Positions 6,109 through 60,846 of a DNA stretch of 64,000 bases are shown here, in pieces. Under the pieces are notes generated by a model. That model saw only the letters and a list, made by a program, of their open reading frames with translations. It was not told where the DNA came from and ran no database searches. Source of the DNA: an uncultured Thermoproteales archaeon (lineage in GTDB: Archaea > Thermoproteota > Thermoprotei > Thermofilales > B20-G17); NCBI GenBank assembly GCA_965368245.1, contig CBDUMD010000007.1, forward strand, positions 2,436-66,435, written 5' to 3'. A program made the position numbers and the translations under genes. Positions within the stretch are counted from its first letter, which is position 1. The number at the start of each line of letters is the position of its first letter.

Positions 6109-6465
6109 GTGGACATGAACGTCAGAGAACTGTATAAAGAAATTATAAATATACTGCCATTGGCTGGATTAATTGCTTCGATAGCCTTGGCATCAGGAAT
6201 AATATACGTTTTTCTAAACATAAACAACCGAAGTGTAGTTGAATATCCCTTATCCTTGGATGTATCTTCGCAGTCGATAATAGAAACAATATTGATTGGC
6301 ATAGGATACCTCGGAGCCGCCGGTGGATTAATATTGATCTATAGGTCTCTTTCTAGGCCCATAAGGAGATTTTCTTCTACAACACAATTATCTCTAATAT
6401 TGGGCGTGGCGACTTTATTTCTAGCGTTTATTCTGCTAGAAATCATATTAGCAGTAAAAAGATAA
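6109..6465 (+). CDS. hypothetical membrane protein (about 3 TM segments)
   Basis: 118 aa with hydrophobic segments ILPLAGLIASIALASGIIYVFL, IETILIGIGYLGAAGGLILIY and LSLILGVATLFLAFILLEIILAV. Confidence 0.5.
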   Translation: MDMNVRELYKEIINILPLAGLIASIALASGIIYVFLNINNRSVVEYPLSLDVSSQSIIETILIGIGYLGAAGGLILIYRSLSRPIRRFSSTTQLSLILGVATLFLAFILLEIILAVKR

Positions 6466-6471
6466 ACAGAC

Positions 6472-7026
6472 ATGACAAAGGCGACTAGTAGACTTTCCAA
6501 GGAAATTCTTAGAAAGGGAGGCGTCATAATAGTTAATTCCAAGGGAGAATTAATAAAAAGTGAATTACTCTCGATAAAAATTCTATTTGAAGTACTCTCC
6601 ACCCTACGCGAAGAAAGGATGGTATGGTTCGTGGAGACGGTTTCTGAAAACGACTGTTATGCCAAATTTTTGTCGGAGAAGGCGGATTCCGTCACTTTTG
6701 TATATGTAAAAGATTTCCCAGGGTTGCTTGAATGGCTATTAAAATATGCTGGATCTATCGAAAAGTCAGTTATCTTGATTTCCGCGCTATATAGACTCTA
6801 TTTGATCGAAATGAGTTCATTAAGCAGACTTCATGGGGTAAGGAGACTATTTTTACTGACTTTATCAATCCTAAAGAAAATAGCGTGTGAGAAGGGGCAT
6901 CTTGTGTTGATTCCAGTAGCCTTTAAGAAGACAGAACACCTTAAACCACTGGTCCATAAGGTACTCGAGGTAGATAAAATAGAAGATGGTGAAAAATCGG
7001 ATGATTTCACTAGACAAGTTCCTTGA
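6472..7026 (+). CDS. hypothetical protein
   Basis: 184-aa ORF, tightly packed and overlapping the next gene by 41 nt. No motif recognised: there is a GGVIIVNSKGE segment but no P-loop. Confidence 0.45.
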   Translation: MTKATSRLSKEILRKGGVIIVNSKGELIKSELLSIKILFEVLSTLREERMVWFVETVSENDCYAKFLSEKADSVTFVYVKDFPGLLEWLLKYAGSIEKSVILISALYRLYLIEMSSLSRLHGVRRLFLLTLSILKKIACEKGHLVLIPVAFKKTEHLKPLVHKVLEVDKIEDGEKSDDFTRQVP

Positions 7027-7666
7027 GAAACACTCTATTTGTATATATAGATTCGAGGGAAGGGTTTACCACAAATTAGCTACACTTTTCAAGGCTAAGG
7101 GAAGAATCCCTCCACCATTATGTACTCCTAAAGGAGTATACGATCTAAAACTACTTTTTCCATCCAATTTTTCTGGAGTGAAGGTAATTGAAAACGAGCT
7201 TATCATCGGGGAAAAAGATTTCATGGAGATGAAGGAAGAAGTCTTTTTTTCGATTCTTGTAAGTGCATTAATAGAGTTTAAGCGTAAGCCCGTGATAACT
7301 ATAGGAATAGATCCGGGGAAAAATATAGGGTACGTTGTACTTGTTGCAGATGTAATAGTGGGTGGTGGACGCGCGCAAGGCGCCAATATACTTATAGAAC
7401 TTTTAGAGAGCATGCTGAAATACCTCTCTCCTCAAAGTTTCATAATTAAAATCGGGTCTAAAACTACCCTAGGATTCTTATTTCAGCTATTCTCGCTTAG
7501 AAAAAATCATCCATCTAAAAAGGTTGTTATAAAAATAGTGGATGAGGGTGAAAGTGTGTTTAAGCTAGGTTTTCTCAAGGATTTTCTGAAAACAAGAGAG
7601 AAGGATTTTTTGGCTGCATGCGCGATTGCACTTAGCGACGGCGAAGAAATAGAAGCAGCAGGATAA
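6986..7666 (+). CDS. hypothetical protein with RuvC/YqgF-like RNase H-fold motifs
   Basis: ITIGIDPGKNIGYVVLV (beta1 Asp), KIVDEGES, and the C-terminal KDFLAACAIALSDG, which resembles the RuvC D-x-x-A-A-x-x-I-A motif. Confidence 0.45.
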   Translation: MVKNRMISLDKFLEKHSICIYRFEGRVYHKLATLFKAKGRIPPPLCTPKGVYDLKLLFPSNFSGVKVIENELIIGEKDFMEMKEEVFFSILVSALIEFKRKPVITIGIDPGKNIGYVVLVADVIVGGGRAQGANILIELLESMLKYLSPQSFIIKIGSKTTLGFLFQLFSLRKNHPSKKVVIKIVDEGESVFKLGFLKDFLKTREKDFLAACAIALSDGEEIEAAG

Positions 7667-7756
7667 ATGGGCTGATAATTACAATATATTTTATCGGTAG
7701 CCACAATGTTTTTAAAACTAGATTTATAGTGTTAGCGGATTAGAGGAGGGAGAGAC

Positions 7757-8283
7757 ATGGGTAAGACGAAGACTTTGCAGTTCTTAGTGGAGGGTGGAAG
7801 GGCTAGCGCTGGCCCCCCCATAAAAGCTGGGGGAAAGGGCCGGCGCTCGGCCCTCTTGGAATAAATGTGATGGCAGTTGTAAATAAGATAAACGAGGTTA
7901 CCGCAGATTTCCGAGGTATGCGTGTACCGGTAAAGGTTACCGTAGATCTCGATACAAAAACATTTGAAGTTGAAGTAGGGGTTCCTACAACTGTCGCGCT
8001 TATTATAAAGGAACTTAAAGCAGAGAAGGGTGCCCACCAACCCGGCCGGGAGTCAATAGGCGATATTTCTCTCGAGAGCGTAGTTAAAATAGCGATAACA
8101 AAGAAAAGTGATTTGAGATCGCATTCTCTTAAAGGTGCTGTAAAACAGGTTCTTGGAACATGTGTAAGTATGGGTGTTCTGGTTAACGGGAAGAATCCTA
8201 AGGACGTTCAGCGTGAAATAGATGAAGGAGTATATGATGACCTTCTTCGAAAGTACGAAAAAGAGTGGGTGAGTGGACGATGA
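7757..8283 (+). CDS. rpl11: 50S ribosomal protein uL11, interrupted: two frames joined if 14 nt (7822-7835) are removed
   Basis: Exon 1 is MGKTKTLQFLVEGGRASAGPP(I) from ATG 7757 and meets TAA at 7862 if read through. Exon 2 is GPALGPLGINVMAVVNKINEVTADFRGMRVPV...EKEWVSGR, ending at TGA 8283. The ORF track shows only 7867-8283. Confidence 0.85.
7822..7835 (+). other. candidate 14-nt BHB/BHL-type intron inside the rpl11 mRNA
   Basis: Outer helix 7805-7815/7837-7847 (11 bp), central helix CCCC 7816-7819/GGGG 7830-7833, 3-nt bulge AAA 7834-7836, loop 7820-7829. Cutting 2 nt 3' of the central helix on each strand gives GPP-I-GPALGPLGINV. Confidence 0.6.
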
Positions 8284-8933
8284 GTGCTGTTATACAAAGG
8301 GAGGAGCTTATAAAGGCGATTCGCGAGATTAAGGCCAATAGTAAACGAAGAAACTTCGTTCAAAGCGTAGAACTCATAGTTAAACTTAGAGATATAGACC
8401 TCAAGAAGCCTGAAAACAGATTAATGACACCTGTACACTTACCCTATGTGCCGCCTGAAAAGCAGGCGAAAATCTGTGTTTTCGCTACAGGAGATCTGGC
8501 ATTAAGGGCAAAAAATGCGGGCGCTGACGCAGTTTTCTCTCGAGAGGATTTAGAAAACCTATCCGGTAGCAAAAAAGAAGCCAAGAAACTGGCCTCTGAA
8601 TACGATTTCTTCCTAGCGCAACCCGACTTGATGGCACATGTGGGTAGAGTTTTAGGTAGGTTTCTAGGCCCTCGGGGGAAGATACCGACGGTGCTACCGC
8701 CTAATGCAAACGTTGAAGCACTTGTAGCAAGGCTTAAGAATTCGAGAATGATACGTGTAAGAGACCAGCCTCAAGTCATGTGTTGGGTCGGCCTCGAAAC
8801 CCAGCCAGAGGAGGAAATAGCCGAAAATATTTTAAGAGTTTTAGAGGTCATTGCTACCAAATATACATTACCCCAGCAACTGGAAAAAATGTACCTTAAA
8901 TTAACTATGGGGCCCTCCGTACGGGTGAGGTAA
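8280..8933 (+). CDS. rpl1: 50S ribosomal protein uL1
   Basis: MSAVIQREELIKAIREIKANSKRRNFVQSVELIVKLRDIDLKKPENR. The ATG overlaps the rpl11 stop (ATGA). Confidence 0.9.
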   Translation: MSAVIQREELIKAIREIKANSKRRNFVQSVELIVKLRDIDLKKPENRLMTPVHLPYVPPEKQAKICVFATGDLALRAKNAGADAVFSREDLENLSGSKKEAKKLASEYDFFLAQPDLMAHVGRVLGRFLGPRGKIPTVLPPNANVEALVARLKNSRMIRVRDQPQVMCWVGLETQPEEEIAENILRVLEVIATKYTLPQQLEKMYLKLTMGPSVRVR

Positions 8934-22826: not shown

Positions 22827-23279
22827 TTACTTTAGCCGTGAATATTGTAGGATAAAATTCCATAGTTTATCTTTGAGATGATGGATGTTTTTCACTACTT
22901 TACCTCTAGACATCTTTCTCATATTATCCGACGAAAACAGTGCTATGCCTACTGCGATCGGTTTCCTGTATTTTTCTTCGTAGATGCATACTACATCCCC
23001 CTCTTCAAAATCATTTACCATGTCAACTATTCCCGGGCGCATTACGTCTGCTCCATTAAGAATATGCGGTACAGCACCCTCATCGACAAATATTCGTGGC
23101 ATCCTGTTTTCGTAGAGTAAGGGGACTAGAAGTGTAGGGTAAATTTGATCGTCCATACGCCATAGTAATCCCTTTTCCTCTACCAAGAATACATCTATAC
23201 CCTGCCTCGTCTTCAGTATTTCAACCCGTTTAGGTGTGGGAATATCGGTCGCTAGAAATTTTTTCAGCACCGTCAACAC
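22827..23279 (-). CDS. PUA-domain RNA-binding protein (MCT-1/Tma20-like)
   Basis: YPTL...VDEGAVPHILNGADVMRPGIVDMVNDFEEGDVVCIYEEKYRKPIAVGIALFSS...GKVVKNIHHLKDKLW. GTG start; see the finding about an upstream in-frame conserved segment. Confidence 0.65.
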   Translation of the reverse strand: MLTVLKKFLATDIPTPKRVEILKTRQGIDVFLVEEKGLLWRMDDQIYPTLLVPLLYENRMPRIFVDEGAVPHILNGADVMRPGIVDMVNDFEEGDVVCIYEEKYRKPIAVGIALFSSDNMRKMSRGKVVKNIHHLKDKLWNFILQYSRLK

Positions 23280-27328: not shown

Positions 27329-27441
27329 GCCGGGGTGCCCGAGTGGACTAAGGGGTTGGGCTCGAGATCCATGTAAAGAGGGCTAGATGAGAAACCCAAT
27401 GCCCCTTCTGGGGCGCGTGGGTTCGAATCCCACCCCCGGCG
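27329..27441 (+). tRNA. tRNA-Ser (anticodon CGA) with a 27-nt intron at canonical position 37/38
   Basis: Anticodon stem UUGGG/CCCAA, loop CU-CGA-G|intron|A, type II variable arm, discriminator G. Confidence 0.85.
27367..27393 (+). other. tRNA-Ser(CGA) intron, canonical 37/38 BHB
   Basis: Central helix CUCG 27361-27364 pairs with UGAG 27388-27391. The 3' bulge is AA|A (27392-27394) and the 5' bulge is AG|A (27365-27367). Confidence 0.75.
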
Positions 27442-54685: not shown

Positions 54686-54788
54686 GCCGGGGTGCCCGAG
54701 AGGACTAAGGGGTCGGACACCCTTATGGGCCGGAGTTGAGATCCGATGCCTCTTTCGAGGCGCGTGGGTTCGAATCCCACCCCCGGCG
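54686..54788 (+). tRNA. tRNA-Ser (anticodon UGA) with a 17-nt intron at non-canonical position 32/33
   Basis: The exons are nearly identical to tRNA-Ser(CGA) at 27329. Anticodon stem UCGGA/UCCGA. After removing 54719-54735 the loop reads C-U-UGA-G-A. Discriminator G. Confidence 0.8.
54719..54735 (+). other. tRNA-Ser(UGA) intron, position 32/33, relaxed BHB
   Basis: Central helix UCGG 54713-54716 / CCGG 54730-54733 (one G-U). Bulges AC|A 54717-54719 and AG|U 54734-54736. Inner helix CCC 54720-54722 / GGG 54727-54729. Confidence 0.65.
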
Positions 54789-54803
54789 TATAGGTTTCCC
54801 TGG

Positions 54804-55244
54804 GTGAATAGCTTGAAGGATAAAGGTTTTCGTTTTCTGGAACATGTAGCCGACGTGTATGTGGAGGCCTACGGTTCCTCCCTCGAGGAGGCGTTCGAGC
54901 ATGCGGCCACTGCTCTATTCGAGGTAATGACGGATACGAGTAAAGTTAAGCCTGAGGTTGTTAAACGGGTTAAGGTAACGGGCTTCGACGAGTATTCACT
55001 GCTGTACAATTGGCTAGAAGAGTTACTTTATCTCTACGAGGTCGAAAATATTCTGTTTTCAAAGTTTAAGGTGCACATAACCAAGGTTAACGAGGATTTC
55101 TCGTTGGAGGGGGAGGCGTGGGGCGAACAATTTGACGATAAGAGACACGAGAAGCGCACCGAAGTTAAGGCCGTGACCTATTCGCAGATGGAGATATTAA
55201 GGAAGGAGGGGAAGGTCGTAGTCAGGTTTGTTTTAGACATATAG
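54804..55244 (+). CDS. archease (RtcB activator)
   Basis: FRFLEHVADVYVEAYGSSLEEAFEHAATALFEVMTD...VKAVTYSQMEI. Confidence 0.85.
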   Translation: MNSLKDKGFRFLEHVADVYVEAYGSSLEEAFEHAATALFEVMTDTSKVKPEVVKRVKVTGFDEYSLLYNWLEELLYLYEVENILFSKFKVHITKVNEDFSLEGEAWGEQFDDKRHEKRTEVKAVTYSQMEILRKEGKVVVRFVLDI

Positions 55245-55303
55245 TAATATTAGTGGCGGAAGAATTATAATTCATGGGAAAATGTCTTTAAAAGGGGAGT
55301 TTC

Positions 55304-56755
55304 ATGAGTAGTGTACCGTTAAAAAAGATTAGTGATGTAATATGGGAGATACCTAAAAGCTTCAGGCCGGGAATGAGGGTGCCGGTCAGGATTTTTGCAG
55401 ACAAGAATCTACTGGAAAAAATGAAGAGCGATAGAACGCTTATACAGGCCTCTAATATAGCTCATCTACCTGGAATATACAAGTACTCCATAGTTCTACC
55501 CGACGGCCATGAAGGATACGGTTTTCCTATAGGAGGAGTAGCCGCATTCGACGTGGAGGAGGGTGTACTAAGTCCAGGAGGCGTAGGCTATGATATAAAC
55601 TGTGGAGTGAGATTAATCAGGACGGATCTCACGGTTGATGAGGTTCGACCTCATCTACGCAGGCTATTGGATACACTATTTAGGTACATTCCCTCAGGTG
55701 TAGGGTCGACGGGCAGGCTTTCCCTAAGTATCGGAGAGCTGGACAAAGTGTTGGCGGAGGGCGTGGAATGGGCTATCTCCAAGGGATACGGTTGGAGCGA
55801 AGACAGCGAATATATCGAGGAAAACGGTTCAATGGACACAGCGGATCCAGACAAGGTATCGGCGAGAGCTAAATCAAGGGGTAGGGCGCAACTAGGAACC
55901 CTGGGTAGCGGAAACCACTTCCTCGAAATACAAGTTGTAGACAAGATATACAACCCGGAGGTAGCTAAAATCCTTGGAATATATGAGGAAGGTCAAATTA
56001 CCGTCATGATACATACTGGGAGCCGTGGATTCGGCCACCAGGTTTGTAGCGACTATTTAAGGGTAATGGAGAGGGCTATGAGGAAGTACGGGATCAGGGT
56101 CCCCGACAGAGAGCTAGCCGCCGTACCCGCCAACAGTAGGGAGGCTGAAGACTACTTTGCTGCAATGTCGGCTGCAGCCAACTTCGCCTGGACCAATAGA
56201 CAGCTTATACTACATTGGACTAGACAGGTCTTCCAGAACATTTTTCACAGGTCGGCCGACGAACTCGGCATGAAGATAGTATACGATGTAGCACACAATA
56301 TCGCCAAGCGTGAAAGACATAAGGTCAACGGAGAATACAAAACAGTCTACGTTCACCGGAAAGGCGCTACCAGAGCTTTTCCACCCGGACACCCAGATAT
56401 ACCATCGAAATACAGGTCCATTGGACAACCTGTACTCATACCAGGTTCCATGGGGTCGGCATCCTACGTGCTTATAGGTACTTCTAAAGCCATGGAGATT
56501 TCCTTCGGTTCCACCGCCCACGGGGCTGGAAGACTCCTCAGTAGATCGAAGGCCATTAGAACATATAAGCCCCGAGAAGTGGAGGGTGCTTTAGCTAAGA
56601 AGGGAATACTCATACGTGCGGCAACCCTTAGAGTGATATCAGAGGAGGCTCCCGGAGCCTACAAAGATGTGGACCGGGTGGCTGATGTAAGCCACCGTGT
56701 CGGCATAGCGACAAAGGTGGTAAGGCTCGTTCCAATAGGTGTTACCAAGGGATAA
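55304..56755 (+). CDS. rtcB: RNA-splicing ligase RtcB
   Basis: [52 protein letters not shown]. Confidence 0.95.
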
Positions 56756-57431: not shown

Positions 57432-57535
57432 GTAGTTACATTAATTTTATTATTTTATCATAATTTACCAGTTACCGTTATTTTAGCAAGCGATTGTCTT
57501 AATACCATCTCCGTTAAAATACTATGGGGTTTAAA

Positions 57536-59599
57536 ATGAGTGAAGCCTTATGGGTGGAAAAGTATAGGCCAAGGGTTCTCGACGAGGTAATAAACCAAGA
57601 TGAAATCATAAGACGACTCAAATACTTCGTTGCAAACAGGAGTTTACCTCACCTCCTTTTCGCAGGCCCCCCGGGAACGGGGAAAACCACAGCTGCCCTG
57701 GCCCTAGCCCACGAGCTTTACGGTAAAATATGGCGAGAAAACGTGTTAGAGCTAAATGCATCGGTGACGCCGGACACCCCCATAATGGTTAGGGTTCTAG
57801 GAACAGTTATCATGACCAACTTTCACGAACTTGACAAAATGGTTTTCGGGGACGACGAGGAGTCCGAGTATGCTATCCCAGTAGGGCTTGAAGTACTCTC
57901 GTTCGACCCCGTTAGCTATAAAGTCTGTTTTAAGCCAATCTCAGCTGTTGCACGACACAGGGCCACTACTGTTATTAAAATTAGGTATGAGGGAGGTGAA
58001 GTAAGAGCCACACCAGATCATTCAATAATGGTGTTGGACGAGGACGGTAACATCGTGTCTAGGCGAGCCGACGACCTCAAGCCTGGAGACTTTCTTCTAT
58101 CATTTAAAACTAAGCTGAATGTCAGTAACGACCATAAACTTCCTGGATTTTACTCAGCTGAGGTAGCGGTCGGCTCTGGGAACGGTGTATCGAAACAGAT
58201 GGTCCTGACTCTTAAATATCCAGGTGAATATTCTTTAATCGAAACGGCAACGGCGGCCGCTGAACCCCTACGAATAGGATTTGTATTTAATCTGCCCCTC
58301 GAAGCTAGAGTAGCCTTCCTAAAAAGATTTACGGGCAATGTATGTGGTAAATGGGGTGAAATTGCCAAATTCTCCTCCACCTCCCAAAAACTTTTAGTAG
58401 AGTTAGCCTGGCTGGCTAGAATAAGCGGTGTAGAAAGCTTGGTGTTCCACGGCGAAACACAGCTGATGCGGAGCAACACAATAAAACAGGGGAAAGCCGG
58501 TCTCCTGCCGGCAAAGCCTTTCATCAAGTTCTTCGAGGAAGTAGCGGATCATATAAGCGTTAACTGGAAGTATACACTGAGGCGTCAACTGTACGAGGGA
58601 GAAGAAATGGTCTCAAAGGAACTCCTCACAAAGATAATGGATGTGATCAATGTAGAGGAGCTCGACGACGATTTAATAGAAAAGTATTATCGGCTTAAAG
58701 GACTAGCCTCCTCCGACATCTATGCTGTTAAAGTAGAGTCCATAAAGCTGGAAAAATACGATGGATGGGTATACGATGTAGGTGTACCGGGTTCTGAAGT
58801 ATTTTGGGGAGGGACTACACCACTCCTGCTTCACAACTCCGATGAAAGGGGCATTCAAACTATACGTGAACGCGTAAAGGATTTCGCTAGAACCATGCCC
58901 TTAGGGGAAGTGCCCTTCAAAATGATAATACTTGATGAGGCAGATAACATGACGAGCGATGCTCAACAGGCGTTAAGACGCATAATGGAGATGTTCTCTA
59001 GAACCACACGCTTCTGCCTGATAGCCAATTATCCGTCGAAGATCATCGAGCCCATTCAATCACGCTGTGCTATCTTCAGGTTCCAGCCCCTAAGGAAGGA
59101 GGATGTTATAAAACGGCTTAAGTACATAGCTTCACAGGAGAACGTAAAGGTCACAGAAGACGCATTCGAGGCAATATGGGAGATTTCCGGAGGAGACATG
59201 AGGAGGGCTATAAACACCCTTCAAGCCGCAGCAGCCATGGGGGGAGTTGTAGACGAAAAGGCGGTATACAGGGTTGTAGGAAAAGTTACTCCCACCGAGA
59301 TACAGGAAATGTTGAAATATGCCCTTGAAGGCAATTTTATAAAGGCCCGTGAAACGCTTAGAGAACTCATGATCGAATACGGTGTCTCAGGGGTGGATAT
59401 CATAAAGTTGATTCACAGGGAGCTTCTCAACCCTAAATCTAGCCTTCCTATACCCGAGGAAGCCAGAATAGAGTTAGCGGATCTAGCAGGGGAAATCAAT
59501 TTCAGACTCATAGAGGGTGCCGACGAGGAAATACAGTTGAGCGCGTTTCTAGCTAAAATCGCACTCGTCGGCAAAAAGTATCTGTCCGGGAGGGTTTAG
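57536..59599 (+). CDS. rfcS: replication factor C small subunit, interrupted by one intein
   Basis: Exteins: LWVEKYRPRVLDEV...GPPGTGKTTAALALAHEL...LELNA | SDERGIQTIRERV...ILDEADNMT...SRC. Confidence 0.9.
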   Translation: MSEALWVEKYRPRVLDEVINQDEIIRRLKYFVANRSLPHLLFAGPPGTGKTTAALALAHELYGKIWRENVLELNASVTPDTPIMVRVLGTVIMTNFHELDKMVFGDDEESEYAIPVGLEVLSFDPVSYKVCFKPISAVARHRATTVIKIRYEGGEVRATPDHSIMVLDEDGNIVSRRADDLKPGDFLLSFKTKLNVSNDHKLPGFYSAEVAVGSGNGVSKQMVLTLKYPGEYSLIETATAAAEPLRIGFVFNLPLEARVAFLKRFTGNVCGKWGEIAKFSSTSQKLLVELAWLARISGVESLVFHGETQLMRSNTIKQGKAGLLPAKPFIKFFEEVADHISVNWKYTLRRQLYEGEEMVSKELLTKIMDVINVEELDDDLIEKYYRLKGLASSDIYAVKVESIKLEKYDGWVYDVGVPGSEVFWGGTTPLLLHNSDERGIQTIRERVKDFARTMPLGEVPFKMIILDEADNMTSDAQQALRRIMEMFSRTTRFCLIANYPSKIIEPIQSRCAIFRFQPLRKEDVIKRLKYIASQENVKVTEDAFEAIWEISGGDMRRAINTLQAAAAMGGVVDEKAVYRVVGKVTPTEIQEMLKYALEGNFIKARETLRELMIEYGVSGVDIIKLIHRELLNPKSSLPIPEEARIELADLAGEINFRLIEGADEEIQLSAFLAKIALVGKKYLSGRV
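57761..58837 (+). mobile_element. intein (359 aa) in RFC-S, Ser1 ... His-Asn / +1 Ser, with a degenerate LAGLIDADG-like middle domain
   Basis: Block A SVTPDTPIMV, block B TPDHSIMV, blocks F/G WVYDVGVPGSEVFWGGTTPLLLHN|S. The middle region (VAFLKRFTGNVCG; LLVELAWLARISGVES) lacks the usual acidic residues. Confidence 0.85.
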
Positions 59600-59607
59600 A
59601 CTAGAGG

Positions 59608-60846
59608 ATGCCGAAAAATATAGCTTTACCCTGGGTTGAAAAATACCGTCCTAAGAGAATTGCTGATGTGGTTGGAAACCCTGAGGCAAAAAACAAGTTT
59701 ATAGCTTGGCTCAGAACATGGCTTACAGGAAAACCGAGCAAAAAGGCGGCCCTGCTTTACGGTCCCCCGGGCACCGGTAAAACAACCCTCGTCCATGCAG
59801 CTGCAAACGAGTATAGACTTGAAGTTCTCGAAGCAAACGCAAGCGATGTTCGAACCTCCGAGGCTCTTAGACGTAGGGTAATGTCCGCTATACGTGAGGT
59901 GTCGTTACTTGGATATAGGGGTAAAATCATACTGCTTGACGAGGTTGATGGAATAAACCCTGCGCAGGATAGAGGAGGCCTAGAAATGATCTTGCGGATA
60001 ATTAGAGAATCAAGGCACCCCATCGTATTAACAGCTAATGATCCATGGGATCCAAGGCTCCGTACGCTTCGCCAAAATGTTGTTTTAATAGAATTCAAGA
60101 AAATACATCAACGAGATATAATAAAAGTGTTAGACAAGATTTGTAAACAGGAGGGCATTGAAGCCGATGCCAGAGTCTTGAAGGAGATAGCTAGAAAGGC
60201 TCAAGGGGACCTTCGAGCAGCCATAAACGACCTTCAGGCAGTAGCCTTCGGGAAGAGGAGGATAACGCTCAAGGATCTCGAGGTGGTCTGGGAAAGGGAC
60301 GCTCAACAAAATATCTTTAGCCTGGTACGTTCAATCTTCTTGGCCAAAAGCATAGCCCAAGCCAGAATGGTTTTAATGCAACCTGACCTAGACTATGAGA
60401 TGCTACTTCACTGGGTTTCCGAAAACATTCCATACCAGTATAGCGAAAGCATCGAGGCTATTGCAGAAGCCTACGATGCCCTATCCCGCGCAGACGTATA
60501 TATGGGAAGAATCAAGAGGCTACAGAACTGGAGTCTTTTACCATACATGCTGGAGCTTTTAACCGCTGGTGTCGCATTGGTGAAACATAAGCCCAGGTTC
60601 AGGTTCACAAAATATAGCTTCCCTCAAAGGCTGAAACTATTGTCGATGACTAAAGAAAAAAGGAACCTTAGAGAAAGGATTTTAGAGGCTATAGCTAGAA
60701 AATGTCATGTATCCAAGCACGATGCAAACCTAGAATACCTACCCTACATAAAAATAATTTATGAAGAAAATCCAAAGGAAGGTAGGAAAATCCTTAAATG
60801 GCTTGGGGTAAGCGAAAGAAGCTTTAAAATGGTGACCAAACTCTAA
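59608..60846 (+). CDS. rfcL: replication factor C large subunit
   Basis: LPWVEKYRPKRIADVVGNPEAK...LLYGPPGTGKTTLVHAAANEY...LLDEVDG. Confidence 0.9.
   Translation: MPKNIALPWVEKYRPKRIADVVGNPEAKNKFIAWLRTWLTGKPSKKAALLYGPPGTGKTTLVHAAANEYRLEVLEANASDVRTSEALRRRVMSAIREVSLLGYRGKIILLDEVDGINPAQDRGGLEMILRIIRESRHPIVLTANDPWDPRLRTLRQNVVLIEFKKIHQRDIIKVLDKICKQEGIEADARVLKEIARKAQGDLRAAINDLQAVAFGKRRITLKDLEVVWERDAQQNIFSLVRSIFLAKSIAQARMVLMQPDLDYEMLLHWVSENIPYQYSESIEAIAEAYDALSRADVYMGRIKRLQNWSLLPYMLELLTAGVALVKHKPRFRFTKYSFPQRLKLLSMTKEKRNLRERILEAIARKCHVSKHDANLEYLPYIKIIYEENPKEGRKILKWLGVSERSFKMVTKL

Follow-up and report, generated by a model that had tools for sequence, protein, structure and literature searches.

A predicted 14-nucleotide splicing-endonuclease intron in the ribosomal protein uL11 gene of a Thermoproteales archaeon

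Introduction

In the searchable literature through 2025, the only archaeal protein-coding gene described as carrying an intron of the splicing-endonuclease type is cbf5 of Desulfurococcales and Sulfolobales (PMC7714728, PMC12397907, PMC2738675, PMC3326292). The cbf5 introns are 16–44 bp long, mostly of a relaxed bulge-helix-bulge (BHB) form, and have variable interiors and a history of lineage-specific loss; they are cut between bulge nucleotides 2 and 3 (PMC2738675). Here we describe a candidate of the same kind in the gene of ribosomal protein uL11 (L11) in a 64,000-nucleotide (nt) stretch of DNA from an uncultured Thermoproteales archaeon (assembly GCA_965368245.1, contig CBDUMD010000007.1, positions 2,436 to 66,435). 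This whole stretch is called the window, and unprefixed coordinates refer to it. We predict, with a probability of about 0.88, that positions 7822–7835 are a 14-nt splicing-endonuclease intron within the uL11 coding sequence, and that it is of the relaxed, bulge-helix-loop (BHL) form of the BHB motif. A first-pass annotation of the window had proposed this intron and had named cbf5 as the only documented protein-coding case. The searchable literature agrees, with the addition of a BHB intron in the 5' untranslated region (UTR) of Haloferax HVO_1309. No report of an L11 intron was found in the searchable literature through 2025, in which subscription journals are incompletely covered, and an earlier description elsewhere is possible.

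The L11 introns resemble those of cbf5 (Watanabe 2002; Yokobori 2009, PMC2738675) in being short BHB-type elements that lie in a protein-coding gene, inside a conserved and functionally critical motif. Most are likewise relaxed, with conserved exon base-pairing, a variable interior and a predicted cut between bulge nucleotides 2 and 3. Some have in-frame lengths and would still need removal. Their distribution is patchy, with probable lineage-specific loss, and the archaea that carry them presumably have a hetero-oligomeric endonuclease, as the cbf5 hosts do. The two differ in host gene, in lineage (relatives of Thermofilaceae for L11) and in length, the L11 introns being 11–29 nt long as against 16–44 bp. 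Both arms of the L11 outer helix are, moreover, drawn from a palindromic coding motif (AGP and GPA codons). The splicing of cbf5 is backed by cDNA and in vitro cleavage, whereas that of L11 is predicted only.

In geometry and cleavage rule the L11 introns also resemble the non-canonical and mini tRNA introns of Thermoproteota, which include BHB and relaxed (hBH, HBh' and BHL) forms, and they are small by the standard of archaeal tRNA introns, for which lengths of 11–175 nt are reported (PMC2738675), the shortest L11 inserts reaching the lower limit of 11 nt. Unlike tRNA introns, they would be removed from an mRNA that has no tRNA body, and splicing would alter the reading frame and not the RNA fold. 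The BHB intron in the 5' UTR of Haloferax volcanii HVO_1309 likewise makes an mRNA a substrate of the splicing endonuclease (PMC7714728). It differs in lying in an untranslated leader of a euryarchaeon with a strict-BHB enzyme, where the coding sequence is uninterrupted. In eukaryotic HAC1/XBP1 splicing, the IRE1 endonuclease and a tRNA ligase (RtcB in metazoa) remove a small structured mRNA intron, and the resulting frame shift gives the functional protein. The proposed L11 splicing would work similarly, by analogy only: HAC1/XBP1 uses IRE1 and twin stem-loops, and is stress-regulated and non-essential.

Results

The interrupted uL11 gene

The genes at the locus run L11-L1-L10-AlaRS, and the interrupted gene is the sole L11 in a conserved L11-L1-L10 operon. 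The uL11 frame opens at ATG 7757 and closes at TAA 7862–7864 after 35 codons; this open reading frame (ORF; 7757..7864) encodes MGKTKTLQFLVEGGRASAGPPIKAGGKGRRSALLE followed by the stop. The downstream part of the protein, 148 residues long, is open in the −1/+2 frame up to 8283. The break point lies inside the conserved GPP(I)GPALGPLG motif. Deletion of 7822–7835 restores the frame and yields GPPIGPALGPLGINV, the same sequence as in the intact homologues P0002, P0003, P0004 and P0006. The coordinates of the two frames, the place of the break and the effect of the 14-nt removal are thus as the first-pass annotation had given them. The gene is laid out as follows.

7710–7717, + strand: TTTTAAAA box (by eye only)
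7745–7749, + strand: Shine-Dalgarno-like GGAGG, 7 nt 5' of the L11 start (by eye only)
7757–7821, + strand: uL11 exon 1, from the ATG to the AU of the split Ile-22 codon; tblastn high-scoring segment pair of residues 1–22 in one frame
7822–7835, + strand: candidate intron AAAAGCUGGGGGAA (14 nt, bulge-helix-loop type); without it the gene is in frame and matches the GPPIGPALG consensus, and relatives have inserts at the same site
7836–8283, + strand: uL11 exon 2, from the third base (A) of Ile-22 to the TGA stop; tblastn high-scoring segment pair of residues 23–170, 100% identity

The product of exon 1, MGKTKTLQFLVEGGRASAGPPI, agrees with the intact homologues, and the Pfam domains Ribosomal_L11_N and Ribosomal_L11 are present on the homologues.

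The C7 and G5 homopolymers that flank the break would suit a sequencing or assembly artefact or a decaying pseudogene, in which a 1-nt homopolymer indel broke the frame. Low-coverage assemblies do hold such errors: in the 4x-coverage assembly of locus L108, a 1-nt deletion at 833–834 (window 8402–8404; CTCAAG to CTT-AG) splits the L1 gene. This deletion is absent from the other assemblies and is probably an assembly error. The L11 interruption behaves differently. Locus L006 (JGI) comes from a near-identical strain, with 38 single-nucleotide polymorphisms and one indel relative to the window over 6.4 kb, and it has the C7 and G5 runs and the 14-nt insert as in the window, with a single substitution in the loop (7828 T>C). 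L108 (ENA, SPAdes, another sample) is identical to the window across the interrupted region. Because three independent assemblies of the species carry it alike, the interruption is not a sequencing error, and the simple 1-nt indel that the first-pass annotation had named as a possible refutation does not account for it. A related species (P0005, see below) is also interrupted, in at least six contigs from at least five samples. Moreover, comparison with the intact homologues confirms that a 1-nt repair would leave 5 foreign residues in the conserved motif. The gene is the only L11 in its operon and its exons are under purifying selection. We regard the artefact and pseudogene explanation as effectively refuted.

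Several other features were observed at or near L11 loci. L006 lacks one T of the T-run at window 7244 (ORF 6986–7666), so that a 226-residue hypothetical ORF becomes two calls of 86 and 124 residues. The three ORFs at 6109–7666, upstream of L11, have no Pfam match. The contig of the metagenome-assembled genome (MAG) B14_G17 (locus L009, QMSC01000003.1, position 1) ends within L11, a few bases past the intron site; the GC-rich, strong hairpin at this site may break assemblies.

The two pieces could alternatively be a split gene, in which an N-terminal peptide of 22–35 residues and a C-terminal fragment started at 7867/7870 assemble into functional L11. Gene callers do report the C-terminal piece as a protein of its own (P0001, 137 residues; P0005, 151 residues). 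On the other side, inspection by eye found no motif comparable to GGAGG upstream of the internal GTG/ATG at 7867/7870, and there is no Shine-Dalgarno sequence or conserved start codon before exon 2. A start at 7867/7870 would drop the conserved GPALGPLGINV segment, and the start of P0005 sits inside the insert and is absent from the other variants. A split gene is exceedingly improbable on these grounds.

RNA structure at the insert

The RNA around the insert can be folded into the following elements.

7805–7815, + strand: outer helix, 5' arm; pairs with 7837–7847 over 11 bp including one G-U
7816–7819, + strand: central helix, 5' strand CCCC; third base of Pro-20 and the Pro-21 codon
7820–7829, + strand: 10-nt loop in which the predicted 5' cut falls (after 7821); a canonical BHB has a 5' bulge and an inner helix here
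7830–7833, + strand: central helix, 3' strand GGGG, within the candidate intron
7834–7836, + strand: 3' bulge AAA, 3 nt, with the predicted 3' splice site (cut after 7835)
7837–7847, + strand: outer helix, 3' arm; core GGGCCGGC (7837–7844), the Gly-Pro-Ala codons
7796–7856, + strand: whole extended hairpin, in which an extra stem (7796–7804 with 7849–7856) is stacked on the outer helix; RNAfold minimum-energy structure

The conserved 8-bp core of the 5' arm, GCUGGCCC (7808–7815), consists of the Ala-Gly-Pro codons. The 11-bp helix, the CCCC/GGGG helix, the AAA bulge and the 10-nt loop are read directly in the sequence where the first-pass annotation had placed them. Its description of a relaxed BHB motif also holds. 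The canonical motif (hBHBh') has a 4-bp central helix with a 3-nt bulge on either side, on opposite strands, and a relaxed one retains the central helix, one flanking helix and no fewer than one bulge. A bulge, a central helix and a flanking helix are all present in the window, and three relatives (L012, L017, L088) are fully canonical. The folding energy, which it had put forward as a check, is −42.9 kcal/mol for 7795–7857 in RNAfold (z = −3.8), and none of 200 shuffled sequences is equally stable. When the entire window was folded on both strands in 60-nt sliding segments, the L11 hairpin (−42.4 kcal/mol) was the most stable local structure, the tRNAs ranging from −27 to −35. A scan of the window for further mini-introns, by means of BHL removals that join ORFs, gave 452 matches; it was too noisy and was dropped.

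Same-site inserts in related L11 genes

Among 185,579 species-representative genomes, 80 L11 loci were recovered. Two of them are interrupted at the same codon as the window, L017 (Thermoproteales archaeon AUK141) by 22 nt and L012 (a Thermofilaceae archaeon) by 18 nt; L009 ends inside the gene and the rest are intact. Metagenomes were scanned with a pattern that requires GG, 4 free bases and exon-2 codons for GPALGPLGxNV, and nothing else. All 21 contigs that it returned carry an L11 interrupted at this site. The closest protein relative of the window uL11 (P0005, 82% identity) is a truncated 151-residue call that starts with MGKGPALG; it occurs on six contigs from five samples, and its locus has a 29-nt insert at the same L11 codon.

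Taken across GTDB genomes and metagenomes, the relatives have 21 distinct L11 loci that are interrupted at the identical codon, with 17 different inserts among them. The inserts are 11, 12, 13, 14, 15, 16, 18, 22, 24 or 29 nt long, and residues 0, 1 and 2 modulo 3 are all represented. Their interiors (4 to 22 nt) are unrelated in sequence and defy alignment between groups. Each of the four in-frame inserts has in-frame stops, and a stop lies inside the insert in 12 of the 17. Relatives therefore do not carry the same 14 nt in frame as coding sequence, which the first-pass annotation had listed as an argument against an intron; the comparison of their rpl11 genes that it had suggested favours one. 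Removal of the insert gives ...GPPIGPALGPLG... and a full-length uL11 in every gene, with mutual identities of 62–99% (median 71%), and the exon sequences are under clear purifying selection across this range. Extra lengths in L018, L056, L065, L066 and L069 were also considered as in-frame introns and rejected: their tblastn matches run beyond the stop and the genes are intact.

All variants share one architecture. The outer core GCN GGN CC pairs with GGN CCN GC, and the central N CCN pairs with an intron NGGN, all four central pairs forming in 21/21 variants. The 3' bulge is 3 nt long in 21/21 and reads AAA, AGA, UAA, UGA or AUA. On the 5' strand the central helix is followed by AU/A (the slash marks the predicted cut), or by AU/G in L087. 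The L087 reading, AU/G...AU/A, fixes the cut at 2 nt. In silico, the open frame and GPPIGPALGPLG result in all 21 variants if each strand is cut 2 nt 3' of the central helix. L012, L017 and L088 fold as a textbook hBHBh' with an AUA 5' bulge, owing to an added inner helix of 3–5 bp, and this is their minimum-free-energy fold. The shorter inserts, that of the window included, take bulge-helix-loop forms. In every variant the BHB/BHL fold is the minimum or lies no more than 3.7 kcal/mol above it.

Two further observations concern the insert interiors. Between L001 and L002/L004, which share the 29-nt insert, intron positions 6 and 22 differ in a compensatory manner (U>C, A>G), turning GUG paired with CAU into GCG paired with CGU in a mini-helix beside the central helix. 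In many introns (L087–L107, L001–L017), an in-frame stop, often UAG, occurs at the 2nd to 4th codon past the 5' splice site, e.g. AUA CUG UAG, AUA CCC UAG, AUA CGG UAG, AUA UCU UAG and AUG CGC UAG. These early stops may be shared by descent, or they may have been selected because they end the translation of unspliced mRNA.

The variety of the inserts bears on the two explanations in which the ribosome, and not a splicing enzyme, would deal with them. In programmed frameshifting, a −1 slip on the C7 run (C CCC CCC) or near G5, stimulated by the hairpin, would produce L11 with a 5-residue insertion (GPPHKSWGKGPALG or GPPIKAGGKGPALG). A homopolymeric, slippery-like run does lie directly 5' of a very stable hairpin, and the −1 frame is open from 7807 onward. 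Programmed −1 frameshifting is also known in Crenarchaeota (Sulfolobus fucA1), which speaks for this explanation. However, inserts of 13, 16 and 22 nt would need a +1 shift, and those of 12, 15, 18 and 24 nt are in frame with 1–2 stops; L012 would read GPPIR(stop)TRG(stop)GPALG, i.e. a double stop read-through. The C7 run is not conserved (CCACCU in L017, CCGCCC in L012). Insert interiors evolve as non-coding RNA with covarying helices, and the products of frameshifting would hold 4–10 variable extra residues within a universally conserved motif. The orthologues thus have neither the conserved slippery sequence nor the constant frame relation by which a frameshift site is recognised. As insert lengths span 0, 1 and 2 modulo 3 and in-frame inserts contain stops, no single recoding mechanism fits all of them, and we consider frameshifting highly improbable.

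Translational bypassing, as in phage T4 gene 60, would have the ribosome take off at the Ile or Pro codon and land before GGG CCG. The short gap within a stable hairpin and the stop codon after the take-off region in many variants are what bypassing would lead one to expect. The take-off and landing codons, on the other hand, are unmatched: take-off would be at AUA (AUG in L087), while the triplet before exon 2 is AAA, AGA, UAA, UGA or AUA. The conserved 4-bp helix, the 3-nt bulge and the covariation correspond to the needs of an endonuclease and not to those of bypassing. To our knowledge bypassing is without precedent in archaea, which also counts against it, and we hold it to be extremely improbable here.

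Covariation and the synonymous-site control

An alignment of 42 structural positions, from which the interior had been removed, contained 19 distinct rows. Standard pairs are formed in 99.6% of its cells. Each of the four helix pairs that vary shows covariation, with between 3 and 5 types of pair: UA, GC, CG, UG and AU at pair 9:34; CG, UA, UG and AU at 12:31; CG, AU and GU at 15:25; and UA, CG and UG at 18:22. The observed covariation score was not attained in any of 500 shuffles, and pairing falls to 27–57% when the 3' partners are slid by 1–3 columns. The L11 inserts thus keep their helices by compensatory change and leave the interior free.

Two of the covarying pairs lie in the central helix, and the other two connect exon codons at their synonymous third positions. 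In 20 of 21 intron-bearing L11 genes both of these synonymous-site pairs are complementary; among intronless L11 genes this holds for 9 of 65 (Fisher p = 1e-11, with no correction for phylogeny). This contrast indicates that the exons are constrained at the RNA level only where the insert is present.

tRNA introns and the splicing machinery

The window holds two intron-bearing tRNA genes, on which the cleavage rule can be examined, and genes of the ligation machinery.

27367–27393, + strand: 27-nt intron of tRNA-Ser(CGA), at position 37/38; central helix CUCG with UGAG, 3' bulge AAA
54719–54735, + strand: 17-nt intron of tRNA-Ser(UGA), at the non-canonical position 32/33; central helix UCGG with CCGG
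54804–55244, + strand: Archease, RtcB cofactor (Pfam PF01951, E = 1.2e-48)
55304–56755, + strand: RtcB, tRNA-splicing ligase (Pfam PF01139, E = 5.2e-179, full-length match)

BHB introns are cleaved between the second and third bulge residues (PMC2738675). The rule that was used for L11 reproduces both tRNA-Ser introns, as the first-pass annotation had said: it gives exact 86-nt mature tRNA-Ser(CGA) and tRNA-Ser(UGA), which ARAGORN recognises as clean tRNAs. The 3' bulge AAA is common to the window L11 intron and the tRNA-Ser(CGA) intron. Without its intron mode, ARAGORN misses both genes, which Rfam detects; in intron mode it misreads the gene at 27329–27441 as tRNA-Leu(gag) with a 25-nt intron, where the BHB rule gives tRNA-Ser(CGA).

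The 32/33 intron of tRNA-Ser(UGA) has a relaxed motif, so the host would process relaxed motifs, and an endonuclease of broad specificity is implied. Endonucleases of the (alpha-beta)2 or epsilon2 type can cut relaxed motifs, and broad specificity is what one would expect of the (alpha-beta)2 enzymes of Crenarchaeota-type archaea (PMC2738675, PMC5829648). The intron-bearing relatives are classed as Thermofilaceae, Thermoproteales or Thermoprotei archaea, and we infer the endonuclease type of the host from taxonomy together with the 32/33 tRNA intron. RtcB, the ligase for the 2',3'-cyclic phosphate and 5'-OH ends of EndA/RtcB introns, is encoded in the window. The intron-bearing tRNA-Ser(UGA) gene is followed directly by Archease and RtcB (54686–56755), which places a splicing substrate and the ligase module in one cluster.

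Beyond this cluster, an ORF for the RFC small subunit (57524–59599, 691 residues) contains an intein, the Pfam Intein_splicing match covering residues 131–438 between AAA+ segments; the RFC large subunit follows at 59608–60846. For the L11 inserts themselves, an intein or a self-splicing group I or group II intron was rejected: the former needs an in-frame protein-splicing domain and the latter a ribozyme core hundreds of nucleotides long, whereas the inserts have only 11–29 nt, and Rfam found only tRNAs in the window. An orthologous cbf5 intron, which would sit at the catalytic-residue codon of cbf5, was likewise rejected: the host gene is uL11, and cbf5 was not found among the 40 window ORFs scanned. 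A split cbf5 beside the PUA-domain ORF at 22827–23279 was also discarded, since this ORF stands alone, with an Sm-like protein and an L37e-like ORF as neighbours.

Discussion

In the L11 pre-mRNA the outer helix joins the Ala-Gly-Pro codons to the Gly-Pro-Ala codons further downstream, and the next four exon bases pair with the intron NGGN. In the proposed pathway, the tRNA-splicing endonuclease would cut both strands of this structure 2 nt 3' of the central helix, which places the cuts after 7821 and 7835, and RtcB with Archease would ligate the exons, creating the Ile codon AU/A and the open frame ...GPPIGPALGPLGINV... The predicted ligated junction is ...GGCCCCCCCAU/AGGGCCGGCG..., and the predicted junction peptide is ASAGPPIGPALGPLGINVMAVVNK. 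Unspliced mRNA would yield only a 35-residue peptide, so that functional L11 synthesis would depend on splicing, and ribosome production may in this way be tied to EndA/RtcB activity, as the first-pass annotation had suggested.

Several observations weigh against this proposal. The window version has neither a 5' bulge nor an inner helix, and the register of lowest energy lies one pair away (5 bp and a 4-nt bulge), with the BHL register 1.1 kcal/mol above it. The BHL geometry (outer helix 8/8, central helix 4/4 and a 3-nt 3' bulge) occurs at chance frequency, with 128 matches in the window and 85–126 in dinucleotide shuffles. The significance of the motif consequently rests on its stability, the frame repair and the comparative data. 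The −1 frame is open across the insert in the window gene and in the 29-nt variant, and a −1 frameshift could rescue those two. When the sequences of 10 spliced L11 proteins were looked up for exact matches in a collection of about 15 billion proteins, none was present as a contiguous gene product, hence neither a cDNA-derived contig nor an intronless allele. A Pfam scan that covered 40 ORFs of the window did not detect endA. Finally, the excision of an 11–14-nt BHL in an mRNA context, here the L11 transcript, is a prediction from sequence. On the other side, the conserved 4-bp helix with its 3-nt bulge and the covariation are not explained by any of the four rival explanations, i.e. frameshifting, bypassing, an artefact or pseudogene, and a split gene.

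In a neighbour-joining tree of L11 proteins, whose resolution is low for such a short protein, all intron-bearing sequences fall in one clade. The clade also holds Thermofilum pendens (P0088) and Thermofilaceae MAGs (P0035, P0043), and its intronless members include P0002, P0004, P0017 and P0022, among others. The L11 proteins of Nezhaarchaeota, Bathyarchaeia and Methanomethylicota lie outside it and are intronless. Given the same site across a Thermofilaceae-related clade with L11 identities of 62–99%, we infer that the intron would be old. Its interior appears to turn over freely, and the intron appears to have been lost (or regained) several times. The distribution is consistent with a history like that proposed for cbf5, in which a single ancient gain preceded several precise losses; alternatively, introns may have been gained repeatedly at the built-in palindrome. 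The closest intronless genome loci are L007 and L008 (L11 at 2501–2995 in each), in which the AGP and GPA codons are fully complementary (GCAGGTCC...GGACCTGC and GCAGGACC...GGTCCTGC). The complementarity may be what a recent loss of the intron left behind, or the hairpin may have been there beforehand.

A-G-P and G-P-A codons are mutually reverse-complementary by the nature of the genetic code, which makes the motif AGPPIGPA a ready-made outer BHB helix. A more speculative proposal, which we consider unlikely overall, is that the L11 intron is more than a neutral passenger, namely a maintained gate that makes the synthesis of an essential ribosomal protein depend on splicing, and that the coding sequence itself seeded it. 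Under this proposal, a micro-insertion of some 11 nt, composed of a loop, NGGN and 2 further nt in that order, would suffice for a spliceable intron, and the early in-frame stops and the retention of the intron down to 62% L11 identity could reflect selection that couples L11 output to EndA/RtcB/Archease activity. If it were true, many "frameshifted" conserved genes in MAGs of Thermoproteota could contain mini-introns that have gone unrecognised.

Gene callers truncate these L11 genes (the 137- and 151-residue calls), and a ribosomal marker is in this way mis-called or lost from the phylogenomic marker sets of the clade. The predicted intron is therefore of interest to annotators as well as to specialists in archaeal RNA processing. 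With lengths of 11 to 29 nt and forms that range from minimal BHL to canonical BHB, the L11 inserts are a natural substrate series that could serve to define what the crenarchaeal-type endonuclease needs outside tRNA, and they offer a concrete model of intron birth at a coding palindrome. If the prediction is true, L11 would be the second known archaeal protein gene that needs RNA splicing, an essential and universally conserved one in another lineage. In that event cbf5 would not be a one-off, and the synthesis of L11 in these archaea would depend on the tRNA-splicing machinery.

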